Below the pieces are notes generated by a model. It was not told the DNA's origin. It saw nothing but the letters and a program-made list of their open reading frames with translations, and made no database searches. The position numbers were made by a program, and so were the translations under genes. Below are positions 9,184 to 57,000 of a stretch of DNA of 64,000 nucleotides, piece by piece. The stretch covers positions 23,624,001 through 23,688,000 of the forward strand of contig NC_058368.1 in the NCBI RefSeq assembly GCF_018350175.1, written 5' to 3'. This stretch comes from Felis catus (lineage: Eukaryota). Within the stretch, counting starts at the first letter, position 1, and every line of letters begins with the position of its first letter.

Positions 9184-10029
9184 AATAAACTACAGAAATG
9201 CTCATCCTCAGCACCCAGCTGAGCTGTAGAGATGGGGCATGTCCCTCAGTCCTGGCCCTGCTATAGGCCCTGAACACACAGATATTCTCACACAGCCCCT
9301 CTCCCTCTCCTCATCAGGAAGACAGGGTATGCAAAGATTTTTCAGGAATCCAGTGGTCATTTGATGAATGATGAGAATTCCTGAATACATTTATGTATCT
9401 CTGGTAACTAGTGCAAACAGAGAAAGGCACTGAACAAACTGTGCTTCTTGTAGTGAACAAAAATTGTAGTAAATTAAGCTAAAAATTGTGGCCCAAGTAC
9501 AGCTACTTACAAAAATCTCTCAGTCATATATAAAACAGATGAAGGGCCAAGTTGAAAATTTATACACACTTTCTAAAATCCACCAGCTCCTTGGAAAGAG
9601 TCTAAATTTTCCACGTGTACACTACATAAATCCCACAAGTGTAAGCAATGCATTTGTCTTCATTCAGCCTTGAACCACTTCATTCCCAAGGGATTGCTTG
9701 GCTATTTAAATACAACTTACTTCTGGGGCTATGTACAGCTTCTCAGCACCGTGTTTAACTCCCCAGAAGCCTTCAGGTTTGAGAGGAAAATCTGGACAGT
9801 GATGGTAGATTGTGGATAAATTGTATTTAGGATCATACAATTTTCACAAAATGTCCTGGAGATACGAATGACCATAAGTAGAAATGACATCCAGGCAGGA
9901 AGGGGCATGGGGAGGCCATTAAGCCCCTTCTCCTGCCTTCATGTGGGATTGCACCATCCACTGGCCTGGGTTATAAGGGGATCAAACTTACAGGAAAGTT
10001 TTGAAGTGGGACACTAAGGGAGAAATTTG

Positions 10030-10560
10030 AGCGCAGGCAGGATGCGGTCAGGATATTGAAACCACTTAGGGACCTTAACAGATAATTTAGTATAGACATT
10101 TGTTAACTAAGTCTCAGAGAACTTCAAAGAAGGGAGAAACTAAGGTCTCACCGAGGAAGTAAAGGCAGCAGCAGCTACCACCCCTGGGATGAGGGAAGTG
10201 GATGGGTTGACCAGGAGGTAAAGAGGAAGAATCCTATGGAACTGGGAGCCATACCTTGGAGGAGGGAGGCTGCTGGCTGGAGCTGGCTTCTCCCAGCGGT
10301 GTAACCAGGCTGCTTCTGAGGGTATGAAAGAAACCGCTGGTGTGAAACCAGCTGCTGTGTGAAGAGCCAATTCTGGAGCGACGTTGACAGCAACAGGAAG
10401 CTGAGTGGGAAGGAATAACTTCCTTCTCCCTTCTTCCTTTTAGTTTCTAGTGAAGAACAACGCAGGGAGTAAAAACAAAGTGTGACTTAGGGGTCTCAGC
10501 GTCATGTAAGGAGGTGGGTTTAGAGTGAGAGCCAGTAGTCCAATAACCGGCATAACAGCC
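10030..10560. mobile_element. Ancient ERVL LTR remnant (LTR41-like)
   Basis: ctggagcgacgttgacagcaacaggaagc...gggaaggaataacttccttctccc resembles the recalled LTR41 consensus. Confidence 0.45.
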
Positions 10561-12579
10561 AAAGTATAAGTTGGTGAGGCTGTATGGCCGGGGCATACAT
10601 TCAAATAACTCTGCGAAAAGAGGGCTGCCTGGGTACAAGACAGCAAGACAGAAGCGAAGCCGAAATGTAAAACTGGATTAGGGTGGTTCGTGGTGGAAAA
10701 TAGACAAATCCGAGCCTTCCGTCTCCACGCAGACATTATCGAAAGGCTCCTTGTAAGATTCCTCTGTGAAACCTCTTAGTACCTTGAAAAGGGGGGAATA
10801 ACTGTAGCAAATAAGTGAGCTCATCTCTCTGTTCCTTCTTTCAAAGGTATCTGCACCTTAAGCCAAAAAATTTTAAAAAGACAGCTTTGTCTCTGTCTCC
10901 TATTAATACAAAGACACTGTTAACGTGCTGAAATTACTGTTTCAGGGTCTGCTGCCATTCTTAGGTGACAGCATCTATTCTTCTGTCTCCGTGATTTTAT
11001 TCTTCCGGTTTTATCAGGAAGACCACTTGGAAGACATTATGAGAAGAAGTTTTGCTTTGGTTTTCCTAAACACAGAACGCTAGACTCAACATGTCTAGGC
11101 AGGAGCACACACTGGAACAATGTGTCCTGTCCCCTACGACCTGGAGTTCCTCATATTTGTACCAGAAAATGAATCACGTATTCCAACACCATCATCGCTG
11201 TGTTTTCCTCCCAGTCATATGCCCATTACTGCTTTAACCCTAGCTCTCCTCCTGAGCTGCAGTGAAAGAGAAGTGAATGAATTCTACACCCCACTGAGAT
11301 TGGACTTTTACAGCTATGTTTAATTGTCAGGCTGTCAGGAAAAAAGTGAGATTTCTGTCCAATCAATATCTATCCCATTTCCCCCCCCACACACACACAC
11401 ACATACATACACCTACACCCACATGCACATGGTAAAACGGTCTTCTGTAAAAAGAAGAGACCTATAAAATATGAATATTGTCAGAAAATATAAAAATGAA
11501 GACATAACAGCATAACAATCAGATGCACACGGAGTGAGCTGTTTATAAATGTTAGAGGAAAAGAGATAAAGTGGAAGTCAGAGCCTGCCTCATCCATTCA
11601 CGTCAGAGTAGAATGAATCATAGCAGCAACTGGGATAGTGACTCAAACAGTAATTTAAAAGGAAATTTGGCAAGGAGAGGATGAAAAGAGGAGCTGGCAA
11701 CTCTGTAACCCTTGAGAGTATCTGTTCATGCAAAACTAATGGACCTTGTGTGGCCAACTGACCTCTAACAACAAACCATTGCAGGTGTCTCTGCAAAGCG
11801 GTATTATGACCTTCCTCCTCATTCTAAAGACGGGTAGGATAAAAGGTCAATGGTGGGTCTCTTCAAGCCACCACTCCCTAAAGGAGATGCCAAGATTTCC
11901 TGATTTGGGATTATCAACCCAGAGACATAGCTGATTAAGAGGGTAGCATCACACTAGAAGGCTGGTTACCTTTTAGTAACAAAAACAGCAGCCACATTTC
12001 AGCACAGCTGGTAGTTTCTGGAAAGAATGTAGGAAACCAGAAAAGAAAAATGCCTTTAAATCACTGAGCTCTCAATACCCAAATCAAAGTGACTCTTCCA
12101 GGCATCTTCACCAAATAGGGGTCCGTGGAGGGATGCTTCAGCCCTTCCAGGACCTAGAGTGTCTGTGGAACAAACCAGGACCATAAATTGCATGTGCACA
12201 GGTGTTTGCCTCCTTCACAAAACCTGGAGGGTCACATCTTGGGGGAACTGGAAGGGCAAGGAGGCCCAGAGAGGCAATGCTTTCAGTTGCTTATGCTTCT
12301 GTCATCAACCACCCTAATCCAATGAGGCTTCCAATGAGACCACAGCTTCTGGTTGTCACTTCTACTTAGTGTTTCACCAGGAAGACCTTTATGAGAAGGA
12401 ATGCTCACCAGCTGGTCCCACAAGAGATACACATGAGCCTCTGGGTGGGAGAAAATTCCTTCAGGAACTGGAGAGGTAACTGATGGCTAGAAGGTGTTTC
12501 ATTTTTACTCTCTGAGCACTGAGGCCTAAAAGAGCATTAGGGCCTTTGGTTCAACTTAGCAACTCCCTAGGGATTCCAG

Positions 12580-13550
12580 GAAAACATTCTTCTCTTGGAT
12601 TTTGTGACATTAACAATTTCCTTCCTATACTACTGCTTCTTCCCAGGGTGCTGCAATCCTCTTCCTCCTCTGGAGATTAAAGATGGGCTACTCTAAAGTT
12701 CCATGGTGGGCCCCTTTCTCATCCTGTCCTTCTACCACAGTGCAGGTGATCTTAACAGTGCAGGCTTTAAATAAGTCCCAGAGGCCAACAATTCCCAGTT
12801 TGCCTGATCTCCCTCCTGGTATCCTGTGTGTGTCCTCAACACCTATTCAACACATCCACTTGAACAGCTAACAGGTATGTCCAATATGTCTACAACAGAA
12901 TTCCTTATTGCTTCCACTCCCTTCCTAATCTGTTTCTAGGGAGTCTTCCCAGTCTCAGTAACCAATCCTACTACTGCTTGAGGTAAAAACCTAGAAGTCA
13001 TCTGTCACTCACACCCTCATCAATCTAGCAGTGAGTCTGGATTGATACAGATACAATACAGATCTCCAATCCACCATTTCTCCCCATCTGCACTGCTCTG
13101 CCTCTGATACCAGTAACACCTCTTCCCTGGATTATGGCCATGATCTTAAAAGGATCTCTCTACTCCCACTCATGAAATCTACAGCCTAATCTCTATACAG
13201 CTCTGCTTACATGATTATTTAAAATGGCATCACTCATGCTTTAAGCTCTCCAGTGACATCTTACCCTAATGGAGATTAGAATTAATGATCCTTGGAGTGT
13301 TTGCCAAACTCTGTGATATCTGTCCCTTCCAGCCTCACCTCACATTTCTTCCTCCTTTGGTATTACAGCACGTCAGTCCCATGGTCCCTTATTTTTCCTC
13401 AAAAACTCCAAGTTCATACTCATCCTAGGACCTCTGCCCTTGAAGTTCTTTTTTCCTAGAACATCTCTTCCCCTCAGATCTTTGCATGCCCATCTTGTTT
13501 GCATGTGTGCCTAGCCTAGAGGTCACCTCTTCAGAGAGGACTTCCCTAAC
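12580..13550 (+). mobile_element. L2 fragment
   Basis: cttcccagtctcagta, aaaacctagaagtcatc, gtcacctcttcagagagg motifs. Confidence 0.75.
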
Positions 13551-14760
13551 AAAACCTCTAAAGTTTTAAAGTTTTAAAACTTTTTAAGGTTTTAATAAAG
13601 CTAAAGAGATCCCATAAATACAATCATTGGGCCTAGAGAAGTTTCTTAACAGCTTGGTCCTGGGGGCAGGGCCTCAGGAGCCTCTGAAAAACCCAGAAGG
13701 TTTGTCACACATATGACTAGAGCTCAGAGGAAATTCCTTCTCTTAGGAGGTCTTCAGAAAGTGTTTCAGAAGTGCCACAATCTCTATAACTATAATTTCT
13801 GGAAAAAAGACCAAGACCCAGGTAAGTGCATACTCATGTTACTAGGAGGCCAGATTCAATGATTTGTATTGTGAAGAAGTCCTGCACAAGGCTGGAATAA
13901 ATATAAAAGATGAAAATACAGAGGCCCAGGATAAAGAGATCATGAAAGGTCTGGCCGTGTTTAGGGCCTGGTGACTAGAGGAAACAAAATGTACCAAAAA
14001 AGGAGAAGGAGAAATTCAGGGTGTTGAAGATGAGAAGCCCTTAAAAAATAGTGGATAATTAGTGTAAACTTTCTTTTCAATCCCTCTTGGAGCTAAAGGT
14101 AAATTAATGACAACTTGACCTCCTCAAGTGAAGCGCTAGCACCTGGAAAGCAAAGAAGAAAACTCAGAGAGGATTTCTCCAAATGGGACCAGCTACTGAG
14201 CAAAAGGCTGTCACATTAAATCAGACTGGGGAATTTATTTACCAGCCAAGTACTATGCTAGAGGCAAAGAAGGAGCTGCTTAAATCAACTAGACTAGGTT
14301 TACCACAGGTAATGGAGCTTAGAGGGTAAATTTTGAAGACCTTCCCACAAGGCACAGTAGAACACACAGGAGAGAGGCTGCCAGGGTATCTGTCACCATC
14401 AAGAGACAATGACTGTGATTCTCTTAAGGGAAGGACAATTGGGTGACGAGTCCTTCTGTTGATATGACATGCTGAGTCCATGTGTAGGTGGGTACAGGCT
14501 GTGGTGTGAGAAGCTGGACATGTCAAAGAGGGTGACTAATTGATTAAAACATGGAATCTGTGAACCTGGCCTCTCCGAGGGTCCATAATGTTGGCCTCAC
14601 TCAAAGTTTCTGGTGTTTAGAATGAAGGGATAGGGATAGGGAGAGAAGAGTTACAGGGCCCAATGTCACGAACGTCCCTAAGGGGTAACTAAAACCACAT
14701 GAGTGAAGCATCTTGGGTTCTCTGCAACTCAACATCTATGCTCTTTACAAGTTCAAGTTC

Positions 14761-14982
14761 TTTTTTTTTTTTTTTTTTTCAACGTTTATTTATTTTTGGG
14801 ACAGAGAGAGACAGAGCATGAACGGGGGAGGGGCAGAGAGAGAGGGAGACACAGAATCGGAAACAGGCTCCAGGCTCTGAGCCATCAGCCCAGAGCCCGA
14901 CGCGGGGCTCGAACTCACGGACCGCGAGATCGTGACCTGGCTGAAGTCGGACGCTTAACCGACTGCGCCACCCAGGCGCCCC
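14761..14982 (-). mobile_element. Young SINEC_Fc
   Basis: CpGs intact, pure poly(T), perfect TSD acaagttcaagttct (14747-14761; 14983-14997). Confidence 0.97.
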
Positions 14983-15168
14983 ACAAGTTCAAGTTCTAAT
15001 TCTGAATAACTCCATGTAAAACTATGTGCATTTTTCTTTCCTTAAAGGGGGAAAAAACCCTACTTTTCCTCATAATAAAACTAACTCCTTGGTTAATACA
15101 GGAGGGTGGGATTAATTTTATGAAATCAGATGCCTTGTGTCAGAAAGTGAATAATTAAAATTGTGAGA

Positions 15169-15414
15169 ATGGGAATAAAATTTCCTGGTTCATGTGTGTG
15201 CACATGGGTTGGCTGTTTGCAGTTTGGCTGGGTTTTTTGCAATACTCTCAGTAAGGATATGCACATTCTCTGTATGTCTAAATGTCGAAAAATTCCATTC
15301 TCTGCACGGACATGACCCCTTTTGCTGGAGATAAAAATCCATCTATGGAAATTTACAACACCGGCATAATCAATATAATGACTATATCCCTTGGTTTGGG
15401 GATTTGCCAAAGCA
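15169..15414 (+). pseudogene. Putative exon 1 (MG-start Cys-rich leader and PH strands 1-2)
   Basis: agaATGg context; donor GCA|GTAAGT at 15415. Reads MGIKFPGSCVC...FSART*PLLLEIK/SIYGNLQHRHNQYNDYIPWFG/ICQS with one stop and two +1 shifts in homopolymer runs. The 5' boundary is uncertain. Confidence 0.5.
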
Positions 15415-15494
15415 GTAAGTGGAGTTTGGAAACTTAAAACTGTTAGTGTAAATTAACACACATACTTTAATCACTAAACTCTTCTGTATTTTAG

Positions 15495-15523
15495 ACTCCG
15501 TATCTGCTGAATTTGAAAAAAAG
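15495..15523 (+). pseudogene. Putative exon 2 (29 nt, NSVSAEFEKK)
   Basis: Follows an 80-nt GTAAGT...ctcttctgtattttAG intron; donor AAG|GTGGGA; phase 1 to 0. Confidence 0.55.
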
Positions 15524-16298
15524 GTGGGAATGTGGTTTTTTAAAAAATACATTTTACATTTTCATTGTGATTTCCTTGATTTGAGGAAAGATTGCTTGTT
15601 AGATTCCTTGGATATCAAGCAAAATTTTCCCCCACTTTTTAAGAAAAGAACTCTTTTTGTGTCAAAAGCAGTCTTTAGTGTCTCGACGGGTTGGTTGGAG
15701 ATTAGACACTGATAAAAAGGGAAAAAAAATGTAATGGCAACATGCCAGAAGTTAGGAGTTGTTTGAAACTTTTTAAGCTTTTTAATAATTTTGGCCAAAA
15801 GCCACTACCTCCTAGCTTGGCAGAACAGGTGGAGGTAATAACTCCACAACCATTTTTTAGTGAAAGCACAGTATGAAGTAATTTTGAAAGGATTATTACA
15901 CATTTTATTTTTAAATAAAAAGTAAAAGGTGATGAAACATATGGTATAATATCTGGGGAGTCTAACATGATGTTTGCAATTGAATCGGGGAGGAATTTGT
16001 CAGTAAATCTGGCCTTTCATCTTTTGAGGTGAAGACGCGTTTTATCTCATTCTTGGTAGAGATACTACCTTAGAATGTAAAATTGTGGGTATGGGCAGGG
16101 CATATTACAACTGATACCCCAAACTATGGCTACTTGTATTCCAGCAAATGGAATTTCCTGTTTTTACATTTCTCTGTGCAAACGGTTGGGGCCCGACCTC
16201 AAACTGTCTAAAAATTCCATGAATATTTTAATATATATAAATATAAAGTGAACATGGAAGTATAACTGAAATGTGCTGTTTATACTTTTCTTTTATAG

Positions 16299-16365
16299 TT
16301 TGATTTTGTGAACCTAGACCACACTGTAGAAGCTCATGAAGAAATTGTCAGATTTAAACTTTCTG
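16299..16365 (+). pseudogene. Putative exon 3 (67 nt, FDFVNLDHTVEAHEEIVRFKLS)
   Basis: Acceptor tttatacttttcttttatAG; donor CTG|GTGAGA; open frame, phase 0 to 1, matching both neighbours. Confidence 0.65.
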
Positions 16366-16599
16366 GTGAGAGTTTTTACATTATAATTGTGTATACATTT
16401 TTTATACTTTTTTTACTTATGTATTCATTTGTACCTTCTAAGAGGCTATAAATATTGACAGATTAAATGTGACCTGAAAACTCTTAATATCCCAGAAACC
16501 TTTTCCACTAATTTAATGGAAGCTTTTTAAATATCCAAAAAAAGCATGGTTTGAATTAGATCTGCTTTGCTCAAGTCTCATTTTTACCCCTTACTTCAG

Positions 16600-16788
16600 C
16601 ACCTGGACTTTCTGAAGAAAGAGTCCTCATTTTATGATTCTGCACCCCCACAGCAGAATGGATAACTACTGTTCACTCAAGGCAAATGGGCAAGAAGACT
16701 ACTCTTACCTGAAAGGTTTATACAAGGATGGAGAAAAGAAAAGGGATGGATTTTTTTAAAATAGTGTAATATTTTAAAAACAAAGGAG
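16600..16788 (+). pseudogene. Putative exon 4 (PH strand 7/Trp helix, linker, start of PTB)
   Basis: Acceptor tctcatttttaccccttacttcAG; reads APGLSEERVLIL*FCTPTAEWITTVHSR (TGA 16635-16637); donor GAG|GTAAAG at 16789. The later part is frameshifted. Confidence 0.55.
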
Positions 16789-17504
16789 GTAAAGTATCAA
16801 CACTGAATCTTTCTGGAATAAAATCAACATCAAAAAGATCAATCGCTTCATGAATGGGTTAATACAAAAATAGATTCTAATGTAAGGGAATCTAGTTGAT
16901 AGTCCCTCACATTCTCCTGCTGTTCCCTGGCAGAAATGTCAGGATTTCTCTTTATTTTTGTGTAGCCAGTATGTGCTCTGATCGTGCCAACATGGAAGAT
17001 CATTTGAATTTCTCACGTTTTGGAGCTTACTCCAAGAGGAAAGAAAGAAGCAACAAACACAGAAATAGAAATCACAACCTCTGCTCTGTTCCCAGGGGTG
17101 TTTCATCTGTGTATCCACCTTTAATCACGTTAATCCCACAGCCCAAAATAGGATGAATTCACAACCTAAATAGATGATAGCAAAAATGTTTAAACATGTT
17201 TAGTGCCAACGTTAAATATTGTAAATGTAAAATATACCAAGTGTAGATACATTTGTGTGTAAATAAGCATGAACACAGAGTTTGGGAACATCTCATACTG
17301 AAAAAGAATTAGAAGCAAAACAAGTACAGGCTTGAGTGAGCTGGCCTGGACCTCAAGAGTAAGCAGCCCTATCTCTAGGCTCAGGCAGGTTGGACATCTG
17401 CTCTGAGGCCCATGGAATTGAGCACAAATCACCTGAGCAAGGACAATAAAATTCACTCCACTGAAGAAGAGAACCAGGCCAAGAAAAGAAGCCCCACCAG
17501 TTGC

Positions 17505-17697
17505 ACCCTATCACTAGGCTCTGTGTTTTTGTACCTACTGCTAATGGAAATACTTACGTGTGTGTGTTTCTGTCCCCCACTCATAGAATGCAAGCTCCAG
17601 GGAGCAGGGCCAACATGTCTCTTCACCACTTGATCTTCAATTCCCAGAACAATGATTAGAACAGAGCAGGTAAGTGCTTGCTGAATTTGTCAATGAG
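17505..17697 (+). mobile_element. L2 3' end
   Basis: tagaatgcaagctccagggagcagg...ttcaccact motif. Confidence 0.7.
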
Positions 17698-17933
17698 TTC
17701 TGGATTCACACAACAAAGGCACTTTATATCACTATAGTAGACATGAAACCCATTTTTCTTAAAGCCTGATTCACATGTGAAATTAAAGTAGAGAAATACT
17801 GTTTGGTGCCCATGTGACAGAACACAACCTGAAGGCTATTTTGCAGTACAGGCAGAATGCGAGGTTTGGATACTATATAAAGTGTGAGCTGTGGGGTGCA
17901 GTGAAGGGAAGAATGAAATGGGAGGATTCAACC

Positions 17934-18182
17934 TTTTTTTTCAAGTATTTTTTTTAAAGTTTATTTATTTTGGGAGAGAGAGGGAGGGAGGGAGGGAGGG
18001 ACTGAGGGAGAAAATGAGCAGGGAAGCAGCAGAGAGAGAGGGAGAGAGAGAATCCCAAGCAGCCTCTGTGCTGTCAGTGCAGAGACCCACGTGGGGCTGG
18101 AATCAAAGAACCATAAGATCATGACCTGAGCAGAAATCAAGAGCAGATGCTTAACCTTAACCAACAGCCTCCCAGGCGCCCC
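17934..18182 (-). mobile_element. Can-SINE
   Basis: TSD tgggaggattcaac (17919-17932; 18184-18197); lies in putative intron 4. Confidence 0.95.
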
Positions 18183-18438
18183 TTGGGAGGATTCAACTTT
18201 GAATAAGAACTTGATTGGCCAATGAGCTGCTACTGTTCCAAGGAGACAAGACTAACCAATAACAATTTCCTGCCTTCCACTGGATGTCCCATATGGTTGA
18301 TATTGTTGGGTTCACTTCAGTTACCCTTTTAAGTCACAGCAAGACATCTATAATTGCTTTTCTGTGTTAATTAGTCAGTTTTGATTGAGATCTCTTTTTC
18401 TACTGGCATTTTCAATGCATACTTACTCTAAAATTTAG

Positions 18439-18661
18439 TGGTGCATTTGTAGGCTTTTAAGCATTTCTGGCCGTGATATTCGAATCCTACTTCCTAGTGG
18501 AAAGTTTAGACAATAAATTGGAATACAAAACAGCTTCTTGCTCTAGCAAACTCTTACATTCTGTGGATTCTGAGAAAAAGAAGATTGAACTCTGGAGTCT
18601 CACTAACCCAGAATGTTCTTGCAGATAAGCCAATTAAACTAGGCTCATTTTCATTCAATGG
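18439..18661 (+). pseudogene. Putative exon 5 (PTB core, several frameshifts)
   Basis: Mosaic of frames: GAFVG/LLSISGRDIRILLPSGKFR/TINWNTKQL.../SVDSEKKKIEL...ECSC/DKPIKLGSFSFNG. Acceptor at 18438 (alternative 18452); weak donor GG|GTATCT. Confidence 0.45.
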
Positions 18662-19371
18662 GTATCTTCTGGTGAATAACAAAATAAAAAAAATAATTAT
18701 AAGGCCACTCATTAAAATCATATTTTCCATGATTATATAAGAAAACTGCCATGATCCAATATATATAATACCATGACATGAGTGTTATAGATGTTTTCTT
18801 TTTATACTTTTATTTTTCAATTTCCCTAAAAAAAAAAAAAAACCATGTTTAGTTTGAAAAAAGAAGATTTGAAAATTTTAGGTTTGTAAAGATCTAGAGC
18901 GATATAAATTCCTGAATGGAAAGTTTTAAGTTTTATAAATTAAAAAACATAATTTTAGAATTGAGGCAAAAGTCAAAAGTGGTCTGATAATTTGCTCTTT
19001 GAAATAATTTTCAACAGTTTGTTGTATTAACTTTTTTACTCAAGTATCTTTTCGCTCTAAGTGTTGGCTGAAGCAATATGAAGGCAAGATGTACAATTCT
19101 TTATGCAGTTCTCATTAGTATTTTCTAATTTCAGCAAATGATTTCTTTTGTTGTTCTTTGCCACTTATCATACACTGTTTACAACCTTATCAACTGTCTG
19201 CAAATAAAATCTATTCCTTTCAAGACAGTGCACTTCTTAAATGCTTTTACTTTTAATTGCAATATTTTTCATGTTGAATTTGCTTAAGCTACATATTCTG
19301 TATTCAAGCAGATGTTCACGAAATAAATATTCATGTTGAGTTTATGTGGCTCATAATCCCATATATTACAG

Positions 19372-26773: not shown

Positions 26774-28009
26774 TATGTGCTCCTTTTTAGTGCTTCCATG
26801 AGCTACTTCTATTTGTACTTAACACATTTTATTAATCCACTGATTCAAAAGATCATTTATTCATTCAGCAGATATCTGTTTAGCATCTTCCCCCTGCCTC
26901 CTCGCCTCCTCCATCCTGAGGAAATGAAGATATGAAGATGCATAAGACAACCTTTATCCCATCTGTGTATTCTGATTTGTATTTAATAGTCTGTCTTCCT
27001 TAGTCTACTATGAGGTTGTTACCTTTCTAGGACCTGGTAGTACTTGCACATAATAAGTACCAAATAAATGTTCCTTGAACAAATTAATGAGTACTATAGC
27101 AGACAAAAGAGGAATTAGAAAGTTCCAAAAGATGAAACTCGCACCGAGATATGTCAAAATGTAAACAGTGGTTTAGCTATCTCTTTGTAGTGAGTTTTCA
27201 GATAAGCTTTACTTTGTTCTTTATATTCTGTACTGTTTGATGTTTCCATGATGCACATATTTATATATAGAAGAATAAAATAATCAAAGGTTTTCAAAGA
27301 CTTAAAGCAACTCTGCCTCTATTCACTGCAAGCTCAGACAGTTTTGTATTATTCTGGAGCTGCCTGAAATCAACACACCATGCTATTTCCCTCAGTTCTG
27401 CCAAATCAGAGCTTGGAGGGTTCATTGTATTAAAAATAACTTAGGACTTCGGTTAACTACTTCAGAAGCTAAGTACCAATCACTGTCACAGAGGATGTGT
27501 GAAAAGCTGGTCACTTAAAGCGTATCTTTTCTTAGTAATTCCTACAATCCTCTAAACCCAGTTCTCTCTGGCAAAATTCAAATCTGCATTTTTATCGTTT
27601 TCAGAAGTCTGACGTTCCTAACAAATACTTGCAACAGCCCCTTTCAGCATTACCTGAAAACCGGCTGACACTCAGTTGATGACATATTTTTAGAATACCT
27701 GTCTCTTCCCATGGGTTGGTTACATGGCTTTGCTTGTGTGCCTCCTGAAATGTAACCTGGCTGAAAGGCCTATGGTTAGGACACATTGCTGCTACTGTGA
27801 GAAGTCAGTTTTAGAAACTGTCCTGGGCTGTTCAGAGGTGGAAGCTGAGCTAGAAGCCATGATGAGTGATTCATTTTGTCAGACTCTTCATCAACTCTGG
27901 TGGGAAAGGGAAAATTTGAAAACCCAACTCAACGTTAGTTAACATTAGGGAAAGAAATGTTGCGAAATGCAGGTGTGAGTGAATGCTAGCCTGTAAGCAC
28001 ACTGACCTC

Positions 28010-28200
28010 ACAGTAGGGGTATGGGAATCAGAGTTCACACTAAGCCTCTGCCACTGATGGCTTATGTCTTTGTGCAGATTAAGCTCTCAGAATTCAATAC
28101 TCACATCTAAAAAGGGAGAAAATATTAATACTTATTTCAAAGGGATGTCGTCAGGCTCATCCATATCTAGCATATTCACAGAGTACAATAAATGTTAGTT
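28010..28200 (+). mobile_element. MIR
   Basis: ctctgccact...ctcacatctaaaaagggag...caataaatgttag. Confidence 0.6.
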
Positions 28201-29235: not shown

Positions 29236-30339
29236 ACTATGCTGTGTTCCTTGATATATTTCCATCTAGTAAATGGGCAATCTATATAGAGGATTGGATT
29301 ATCATTATGAGAGTCCTCGGCTATTGAAGAGGGACCTTAAAAGAAGAAGGGAGGTGCTTGTAAACTATTTGTTGTGAAGTGACATTAGCCAATTTGTCAC
29401 ATAGCTGAGGTTCTTTTTGGTAACTAGGTACTGCCCACAATCTTGCTACCTACTGATAACGAAAGTATCTAATCAAGTTCTTCTACACATGGGTACATTT
29501 GCCAGCTATTCATTATCAATGAATGCACAAAAATTTCCTACATCATCTTCTCTAACTTCAGTGAAATTTCAGCTTTCTGCCCTTGTGTGAGAATTTTAGC
29601 AGGCAGACCAACAAAATTTCGGAGGGAGGATTCTGTATCACTAAGTCACAGTGTAACTACATCACAATTCTCCTTAACTGATGGCTGCACACAAAACTGA
29701 TTAGGGCCTAAGCCATAGACTCCATCCACAAAGGTGAGGAATACATGCCAGGGTGGATTTTTATCCAGGGTGGATTTTTCTTACTAGGACAGAGAGCAAT
29801 TTAAGCAATTTTCGCCAACACACATGAGCACTACATCCACACAAGTAGAATACCGTTATTTTCTTCTAAGAACCCATTTCTAATATTCATCATACTTAAT
29901 AATAAGTCACTTGTTCTAGGAATGAAAATCCATTTTGTCTTCTACTATGCTAATTAGCAAACTGTCAATTGTTGATTGAGATACCAATAGCTGAATGACT
30001 TTTAGGAGCTGCCTCTGGAGTATAATGCCAGCCGACTGCCTCTAAAATTAAACTTTAACTGGTGTGAACATAGTGTTACACAGATTATGCTAAAATACTT
30101 CAAAGTAAATCACAGACTTTGTAACAGAACTGCATATTTCTAGTTTGGACATTCTTTGGAGCCCATTTGTTCTTTCTTGGATTCTGCTTCGATTTTTGGA
30201 AAGGTAGTTTTCTTTCCTTGATAGGCTTTTTGGTTTTGCCCATGAAGAACAAATACTGGGATGCTTTTCTTGTAATGTGTATGATATTGTATCTGTAGTT
30301 ATAAAATTCAAATAATTTGAACACTAATTCAAACAGTTT

Positions 30340-30585
30340 GGATACTCTATTAAGTGCTTACAACGATACTGGGGATTTTATCGGGGACTTTACTGGTATT
30401 GTGTGTCTTTTTGATTTAAGCCTCGCAGTGATCCAATGATTAAGATATTTTAGTTTGCAGGAAATAAATGTGAGACTCCAAGAGATTAAATAATTTGGCC
30501 AAGGTCACACAGTAAGTGACAGCAACATTATTTAAATCCTGGTCTGCAACTCCAAGGCTCATGCTCTCAATCAATTCACTACACT
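30340..30585 (-). mobile_element. MIR
   Basis: attaaataatttggccaaggtcacacag core. Confidence 0.7.
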
Positions 30586-50712: not shown

Positions 50713-50782
50713 TGAAATGAAATGAAATGAAATGAAATGAAATGAAATGAAATGAAATGAAATGAAATGAAATGAAATGAAA
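50713..50782. repeat. (TGAAA)14 perfect pentanucleotide repeat
   Basis: Directly visible. Confidence 0.97.
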
Positions 50783-51094
50783 TAAGTTGATCCTGCCTGC
50801 TTAGCACTGAAAGGGTCAGGAACTCAGTCTATAGAAAGTTCCCATAAGATACCCAGATCTCAGTCCACCTTCAAGGCTTGTAAAATACATTTAGGAAAGA
50901 GAATTAATGTTTAACCTCTGAGCAACTTCTGGCTCTAAATGACATTATTTATAGTCACACAAGATTCAGGAGATTGAGCTACTTGGTTCAGGCTCTGGAT
51001 TTTCAGTGAAATGTTTGATGGATTCTGCCCCAGTCTCTTCACAGGACCAGGAAGAATCCATTGAAGGTAATATAAGAATTCAACACACAATCGT

Positions 51095-54047: not shown

Positions 54048-57000
54048 AGAATTTTAGGAATGCTGAATATCTTAAGGTCATTAGAGGGACATTGAAAAGG
54101 AGATGAGTAAGGGTCATTTTATCCTCAAATTCTTTTCTTGGAAATATTGCGAAATGCATGTTGAGTTAGAAAAGGATAGATAGGAAACCAGAGGCTGAAT
54201 TTTTGCTCTAGATATCAGCAGGTGCTTCCTCTACTTAATTCCTACATTCAGTTACTCCATCATTTTCCATGTTGACTTCATGGTTGTTCCTTTTCAGTTC
54301 AAGGCTTCAATGCTTTTGCCTTCATTCATGTTCACTCTTATGTGCATGAGAGACACTCTCATGTCTCGTGTCCACCTTGCTGCCTATTCCTCTGGTCTTA
54401 TTAGATGAGCCACTCTTAGAGCCATCTACTCACTCAGAAACACTAAAGGGTGTGGAAATCATGAGCGCTGACTAGTGCAGTCTGGGCAGTGTGTTGTTTC
54501 CATTTGGAGTACTGACTGCTCTGGACATGTTATGTACAAACATGCCTTATCTTTATAAAATCTAAGCTAAATGTTCCAAGAAATGGTTTCAAAAGGCCTC
54601 CAGGGACAATCAGACTTTATCCACTTTGACTTCCACATAAAAGTTCTTATTGTGCAAGCTTGGTCTCTTTTCATTCTCTCTGATCTGTCTCCATCCCTTC
54701 CACTGGCTCAGAGGACAAAGGCCATTTTGTCATACCATTCATAGCATCAGCAGGAAGGTTGGCTGAGGTTTGGGCATGAGAAATCTCTTATTCTGGCTTC
54801 TACTCTCTGATTTCTATTCCTACTGATTTCAACATCTTCTTTAGAGACAGACCCAAAGAGTAGGTAGTAGGCATTTGCACTGCCTCTGTTTCCTTGTGGA
54901 AGGAGACTCTGAATGGCAAGTTTTTCAGAATGAGAGGTCTGCCTGACCCAGGCAACCATCTCTGCACAAGAGGGCCTTTTTCTCCATAGCATTTGGGGTC
55001 TTCCTTGGCCTGGCAATTTATCATTCTTATGCCTACTATGCCCAGGGTCATGACAGTCCAGTCAATCAAGAAATGGACTGGTAAGTCAAGAGACATATTG
55101 TTGGTCACTTGCCAACAGGATTGGACTTCCTTATCTGGGCTAAAGAGATGTGACATGAATAATATGCTTAGTCCAATGATTTAAAATTACATTTTGTATG
55201 ATGATAAAGCTGGTCATCAGAAACATTAGGTTTATCATCTCTTTTGAAATGAAACATCAGAATACAGTTGGAAAAAATGGAAAGGAACAGGGTTTGTTAT
55301 AGTGTGAGAAGTCTTTTAATTGAAAAATAGAAAGTAAACAAAGGGATACAGACCAGTAAGAAATGAATTAAAAGGTCACAAATTACTGGATCACAGTCAC
55401 AAAATCCAAAGAGCAATGTGTCTTCCTGCCCCACGTGAGGGGTGGGGTGGTAACAAGGATCATGGAGATCACGGAGCCTATCATCAGGTTTATTTGACTC
55501 CTACATTGGAGAGGAACACACTTCCTTCTCCCTTGCAGACTAAGTATTACATTGGGTCTAATAAGGTGAAAGTGTAGAATAGTTTGAAGGTTTATAAGGC
55601 TCTTACTTCCTCAATTTACCTTTTTTGCCCACTTCCTAATTCCTGCACCTACTGAAACAAGATGGCATAGCAACTGATAGTCACACTCATGTGAAAATGA
55701 CTGATACCAGATCTGTTCCTGAGAGCATGTTTTGATAAGGGAGAAGGCAGAGGATAGAGAAAGGGCACCAAACTAAAGGAAAAAATAAGCCTGATGTGGC
55801 AGGGTTGACAGAAGGAATCGAATGATCTAGAGTTACCTTAATACTTGTTGGGGAAAAAAGTTTCTAGGTTTCTGTTGAGGCTAAGAATATGAAAATGAGA
55901 AAAGGAGGCATGCTAATGTTACACTGGAAGAAGAGCTTCCAAACAATGTGCCAATTGCTGGGACTTTTAAGAAATGTCAGATTATTCCCATTATGAAGAA
56001 AAAATTGTACGTAGCAAATAAGTCCAAAGCAAATTCAACCTCTCTTCCATGTTAGGTATAAATAATACATATATTTTTATTACTGAAAATATTTTCAATT
56101 GTACTTGACATATTAAAGATAGAAATTATATTAATGCAATATTAAAGTTATTAATATGAGTTTTCAGAGAGATTATTTTTCTGTAAGCCCAAGAGTTCTG
56201 AGAGTATTTTTTTAAACTACAAAGTAGACCAAGAATCTTCCTTTGGGCAAAATAGACTCATTTCTAATTGTTAGATTCATGTGTGTCATTAGCTTTTAGG
56301 CTATAACAATCATTCCATTAACAAAGAGAAAGATGGCTATCAGCTGTCTATATTGATAAACTATGGTTTTGTTTTGGAGTGGCTCAGAAGGAAATAGTTA
56401 AGAGCATAGATAACAAGAGTGATGGACTTCCATTATTCAAGATATTCCTATTTGCTTTCACAAAAAATGGAGGTCAACCAGGGATTTCTCACGTGTGGCA
56501 AGTTTCCAGTCCCGGTTCTTCCACTGATGTAATAGAGGAAGTTTGATGCAGTCATTGAATGATATAGTCCCATAAAGCCACACTTTCCTTATCCACACTG
56601 ACAAAACCATCCTTTTACTCTCAGTTCACCAGTAAACATCTCAGGAGATGTTCCCAGCAAGGAATTTTGCTCACCAAAACAACCTCTGAGCAAAGGAAAT
56701 TTATAGAAACATATTGCTCTTAAATGAATTATTTGGGTCATAGGAAGAAAAGCAAATGCATGGAAACTACATTTCAATTCCCCATTAAGCCACATGAAAG
56801 GTGTACTAGGCTCAAGTACCTAATATAGGCTAGCAATTTAACCAGAGGAACAGCTTGGAGGATATTGAAATAAATCATTTTGGTAATTTCAAAGAGTTTC
56901 TATAGAGATGCGCTGGATTTCTTTTTAATTATTCTACATCTGTTTAGAGATATGCAATTTCCATCTATGTAATTGGATTTTAAGTACTTTTTCATTACTA

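Follow-up and report, generated by a model that had tools for sequence, protein, structure and literature searches.

A possible relic of a pleckstrin homology domain gene in a repeat-rich region of the cat genome

Introduction

Four short pieces of cat DNA, lying on the forward strand between positions 15331 and 16681 of the 64,000-nucleotide stretch that was analysed (the window), can be joined to give a peptide resembling the PH (pleckstrin homology) domain, and the question raised by this locus is whether the pieces descend from a gene or owe their resemblance to the joining itself. According to PMC4704004, the PH domain is a sandwich of seven antiparallel strands that a C-terminal helix closes off, its hydrophobic core is the conserved part of the fold, and the Trp of the closing helix is conserved at 98.2%.

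The window is repeat-rich mammalian DNA with a G + C content of about 37%; its repeats are presumably carnivore-type SINEs and L1 pieces, and it also holds a (TGAAA) array of 14 perfect copies at 50713–50783. From gene order, the locus is taken by us to be a gene desert between SUCLA2 and HTR2A, and presumably lies outside the neighbourhoods of STAP1 and STAP2. Literature searches returned nothing on the SUCLA2–HTR2A interval together with STAP, pseudogene or unitary pseudogene (supplementary gene-loss tables could list the locus), and nothing in main texts, as distinct from supplementary files, on a pleckstrin homology paralog of STAP1/STAP2.

The four pieces are tentatively read here as the relic of a dead, unannotated PH-domain gene. 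Nearly as likely is that they are neutral intergenic DNA, in which GT/AG look-alikes were stitched into a peptide echoing a familiar protein and from which no product is or ever was made. If the relic is real, a vertebrate signalling gene has been missed by annotation and its loss could be dated; if it is not, the case illustrates that a convincing domain is easily put together from look-alike splice sites and a familiar protein. Either way the gene is dead in the cat, so that the locus opens no new mechanism.

Candidate exons and splice sites

Coordinates, splice dinucleotides, stops and frames are given as observed, and the term exon is used for the pieces in a putative sense. Candidate exon 1 (15331–15414) follows a weak acceptor (AG 15329–15330) and ends at the donor GTAAGT at 15415; one of its frames, on which the original prediction was built, carries the G-x-L and aromatic cues of a PH domain, and another is open without edits. 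Candidate exon 2 (15495–15523, 29 nt) is bounded by a present AG (15493–15494) and the GT at 15524, and candidate exon 3 (16299–16365, 67 nt) combines a good acceptor and a good donor with a single open frame, in which a pattern like that of strands 4 to 6 can be recognized. Candidate exon 4 (16600–16681) also has a good acceptor and an undefined 3′ end (GC at 16682 or GT at 16789); it contains a strand-7-like block followed by a Trp codon (TGG 16659–16661), so that the Trp of the PH closing segment is present. Behind this Trp, L-L-P is encoded in the +1 frame at 16702–16710, which we take to resemble a motif that follows the PH domain in STAP proteins; it is out of frame and too close by about 11 nt, and is noted as a lead only.

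Joined in this way, the pieces are separated by introns of 80, 775 and 234 nt, all of them GT–AG. Splice sites were scored with a simple weight matrix built from consensus frequencies. By this measure, and relative to all sites of their kind in the window, the donors at 15524 and 16366 and the acceptors at 16299 and 16600 rank among the top 1–2%; the donor at 15415 is among the top 4%, and the acceptor at 15495 only among the top 11%. The strongest exon-like pair near the candidate exons was observed at 17587–17669 on the same (+) strand, with an acceptor of 6.3 and the donor CAG|GTAAGT of 8.8; this segment is without an open frame, presumably lies within an L2-type repeat, and is a possible non-coding next exon.

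Lesions and the peptide as first reconstructed

The GGGG run at 15398–15401 and the TGA at 16635–16637, on which the reconstruction had been based, were confirmed, and the peptide was reproduced from 15335–15414, 15495–15523, 16299–16365 and 16600–16683 after removal of one G (86 positions including the stop). An in-frame TAA (15332–15334) directly precedes the first codon of the reconstruction at 15335, and since there is no AG between the two, this version requires a third lesion, which had gone unmentioned. The reading frame of the candidate is broken by the TAA at 15332 and the TGA at 16635, and its first junction has either shifted the frame or lost its acceptor. The TGA lies 35 nt into exon 4, where it is premature for a PH domain and the natural end of an unedited frame of 88 codons discussed below.

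In a comparison made by hand against human STAP1 (STAP-1/BRDG1), for which residues 12–106 as given in Table 1 of PMC12034384 served as reference, the reconstructed peptide matches at G30, L32, Y39 and Y42 and, after a gap of seven residues, at S62, K68, D70, V72 and L74. The gap coincides with strand 3 (STAP1 residues 52–59), so that strand 3 is missing, 74 residues separate Gly from Trp, and the spacing is 7 short of that of STAP1 from the Leu onward. The claimed resemblance to the STAP1 PH domain holds at twilight level, and holds better with the shorter first intron described in the next section than with a peptide from which seven residues and strand 3 are missing. The one-G deletion found no support in the alignment: the five residues that follow it match STAP1 in 0/5 positions, versus 1/5 (L49) plus a D/E pair in the unedited frame.

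A possible alternative first intron of 60 nt

If the first intron is allowed to end at 15474 instead of 15494, that is 20 nt earlier from the same GT donor (15415), with CAC present in place of CAG, no G needs to be removed and the deletion in the GGGG run becomes unnecessary. The segment 15475–15494, assigned to the 3′ end of intron 1 in the original prediction, encodes a strand-3-like block in frame with exon 2 and would be exonic with an ancestral acceptor at 15473–15474 (now AC). With this intron of 60 nt, 13 of 45 residues are identical to STAP1 30–74 in a gapless alignment counted by hand and free of any frameshift, and the identities sit mostly at hydrophobic core positions. The binomial probability of this count is 1.5e-6 at 6% background, without a correction for having selected the protein, the register and the splice sites. 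Given two compensating 3-residue gaps, further matches to STAP1 are obtained at E, F, L, P, E and V. Upstream of the Gly, 0/18 identities to STAP1 12–29 were counted by hand.

Across the three junctions, the aromatic residue, Leu, Phe and Val are observed at +16, +44, +57 and +69 from the Gly, compared with +16 (W46), +44 (L74), +60 (F90) and +69 (V99) in STAP1. The Trp, which stands behind the TGA, follows the first Gly by 81 residues, a whole PH domain having about 100, with strand 3 present and the acceptor assumed. In STAP1, the corresponding Trp is at +82, outside the range of the reference table.

The strand-3 block had been left unused in the first reconstruction and exons 2 and 3 dictate its register, so that its agreement with STAP1 52–59 (4/8 identical) counts against an origin by chance; this level was reached by 2/810 acceptor-like AG sites of the window, the candidate site included. 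The same 20 nt also serve the present AG (15493–15494) as its pyrimidine tract, and such a tract translates to L and F by itself, which speaks against this reading. The assumed old acceptor (CAC 15472–15474) scores –7.0, a level matched by 45% of AG sites. The length of 60 nt also counts against this intron, because canonical introns predominate above 70 nt according to PMC5435141.

The following course of events can be proposed for the locus, in which the fold, the order of the lesions and the former function are conjectural. The ancestral gene would have encoded a PH fold in which seven strands are followed by a Trp-containing closing helix, and this fold was probably part of a signalling adaptor that was brought to membranes or to partner proteins. 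The acceptor of the first intron would then have been lost (CAC 15472–15474) and stops would have arisen at 15332 and 16635, no G having been gained. Present splicing would use AG 15493–15494 and shift exon 1 to another frame, as a result of which no PH domain could be made. On this account, the base that corresponds to 15474 is predicted to be G in other mammals.

Chance controls

Chains of four exons with an open frame and an equal summed splice score were found at 5 loci of this strand and 2 of the other, and equal chains occurred in 30/30 locally shuffled strands, at a mean of 3.3 loci. Six other loci of the window thus do as well as the candidate, in line with an assembly from neutral sequence. 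For the cue test, G-x-L, aromatic, F-x-L and W were sought in 165 shuffled strands, with the deletion of one G/A/C/T from a run and one stop allowed. All four cues are present in the candidate, as the original prediction had stated, but they were met in 129/165 shuffles; as first written, the observation does not exceed chance.

A generic PH-core pattern gave another result. The candidate locus was its sole match in the window and 4/239 shuffled strands matched, which speaks against chance; in a run with a stricter acceptor threshold, 8/328 null strands matched and the candidate itself was missed because its assumed acceptor scores poorly. These patterns were composed after the peptide had been seen, and a rate of about 2% per strand still implies a few chance matches among 88 windows of the cat genome. 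A stricter pattern, found in 0/165 shuffles, was fitted to the peptide and was set aside.

An origin in neutral DNA is further favoured by the three lesions and the very short intron that must otherwise be assumed, by the outcome of the searches reported below, in which every database query with the pieces came back empty, and by the finding of no flanking coding exons among stop-free pieces searched against Pfam. It is countered by the strand-3 block in register, by the generic core pattern, and by an overall spacing equal to that of STAP1 across three junctions. The relic of a PH-domain gene is retained as the preferred reading, tentatively and with chance close behind.

Database searches and predicted structure

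Protein searches and structure predictions for the candidate exons were performed with unjoined pieces or with read-throughs in which the stop was written as X. Pfam gave no match at cut-off (32 and 5 queries with unjoined pieces of 22–37 residues and read-throughs, a weak test), and no unjoined piece matched the PH clan. Six PDB queries with pieces or read-throughs, likewise a weak test with such short queries, had a best E of 0.14 and returned no PH entry. A STAP PH entry exists in the PDB, and none was among the matches at E ≤ 10. Searches of a word-indexed protein set with short pieces gave 4, 2 and 67 candidates, none of them at E ≤ 10; an atlas gave no match for the short pieces or read-throughs, and 591 and 589 pattern matches in metagenome contigs included none that was confirmed. 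A match to a viral locus (48% over 27 residues, partly intron) was taken as chance. Rfam gave 0 matches over 9300–19000.

The little-damaged frames suggest a recent death of the gene, so that intact relatives would be expected in the word searches; none appeared, and no intact ortholog was found by this method, which misses relatives below roughly 70% identity.

For an unjoined read-through, AlphaFold, run on the single sequence, predicted a strand followed by a helix in exon 4 at low confidence (pLDDT about 50). The Foldseek search with this model (pLDDT 44) gave no match at E ≤ 0.001, and the STAP2 SH2 domain that it listed at rank 20 with E 5.5 was disregarded as meaningless for a model of this pLDDT. 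When the 60 nt were retained, the N-terminal half was modelled from the single sequence as three helices, hence all-helical, at pLDDT 66.

Elsewhere in the window, two stop-free stretches without a Pfam match were observed on the reverse strand, one of 85 codons at 30103–30357, Lys-rich and resembling a coding exon, and one of 126 codons at 54800–55180, outside obvious repeats. A third, on the forward strand at 27694–27939 (82 codons, with a good acceptor at about 27604), lies in a segment spanning 27550–28200. Against the full HMMER library it gave 4 matches, a fibronectin from fish and three ORFs without a name. The unnamed ORFs, from apparently mammalian contigs, match 27550–28200 at 34–52%, in more than one frame and beyond where any exon would end, for which reason 27694–27939 was dropped as a downstream exon; from these matches, the segment 27550–28200 looks like orthologous non-coding DNA.

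Present splicing and transcription

The present GT–AG sites might instead be in use, giving a spliced non-coding RNA or an RNA with a short ORF, to which the PH echo would be incidental or a relic. Spliced without edits, the same four pieces carry another open frame, which needs no change over its 88 codons from ATG 15282 to the TGA at 16635–16637 and passes as one frame through both exons 2 and 3; its stop falls in the terminal exon 4 and is followed by AATAAA, the poly(A) signal being at 16817 or 17445, and a pyrimidine tract and a branch-like CTAAAC accompany the present acceptor. Yet open chains of this kind are common by chance, and the encoded product found no counterpart: 0/10 local ORFs were present in a protein collection by exact look-up, no protein of 70–224 aa sharing words with exon 3 scored, and the exon 1 frame was without a match in Pfam, PDB or the atlas. 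The frame (15282–16637, +, spliced) has four in-frame ATGs and is mildly hydrophobic at residues 24–42, a stretch that is weak as such (Kyte–Doolittle 1.44 over 19 residues). Use of the present sites is therefore regarded as unlikely.

Among 24 sequencing runs listed for 15000–17900, 14 RNA or guessed-RNA runs hold 0.34–0.64 of the sampled words. A reading of these shares as transcription was dropped, as four short exons would give 0.05, and as the shares of four gut runs grow from 0.40 to 0.64 while run size goes from 1035 to 1887 million letters, and as genome-sized sets give 1.00. The word shares fit host DNA, from which transcription cannot be separated by the run list. A modest enrichment of CpG (observed/expected 0.51) was observed at 10500–11000, 4–5 kb upstream of the candidate exons, and may mark a promoter or enhancer.

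That the locus beyond SUCLA2 held a third, unannotated STAP-like PH adaptor gene with intron positions of its own, dead in cats and intact but unrecognised in some other vertebrates, is a more specific form of the preferred reading and appears quite unlikely.

Comparison with STAP proteins and the PH superfamily

In PMC9776019, the STAP family is presented as a pair of proteins, namely STAP-1 and STAP-2, adaptors in which an SH2 domain lies C-terminal to the PH domain. STAP1 was lost in squamates according to PMC13005343, which has no bearing on the cat locus. Unlike the STAP proteins, the cat locus shows no remnant of SH2 within the window: Pfam gave no SH2 match in 197 of 203 listed stop-free plus-strand pieces of at least 36 aa from selected non-repeat regions, a search that decayed, shorter or outside-window exons would escape, and 0 of four SH2 motifs were found in six frames of the window. 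Membership in the STAP family is not shown, the SH2 test being negative within the window. The introns of the STAP1 PH domain are presumably all of phase 0 and interrupt other codons than the candidate junctions, of phases 2, 0 and 1, do.

With the 60-nt first intron, the locus is like the STAP1 PH domain in how its core residues are ordered and spaced over STAP1 30–99, and unlike it in its two stops, its lack of a usable acceptor and the absence of similarity to STAP1 12–29. In relation to the PH superfamily as a whole, the differences are the lack of a Pfam PH-clan match for the unjoined pieces and the modelling of the N-terminal half as helices, whereas the hydrophobic pattern is compatible with seven strands and the Trp is placed in the last segment, for which a low-confidence model gives a helix. 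At best, as far as its sequence suggests, the product of the cat locus would have worked like a STAP-type PH domain.
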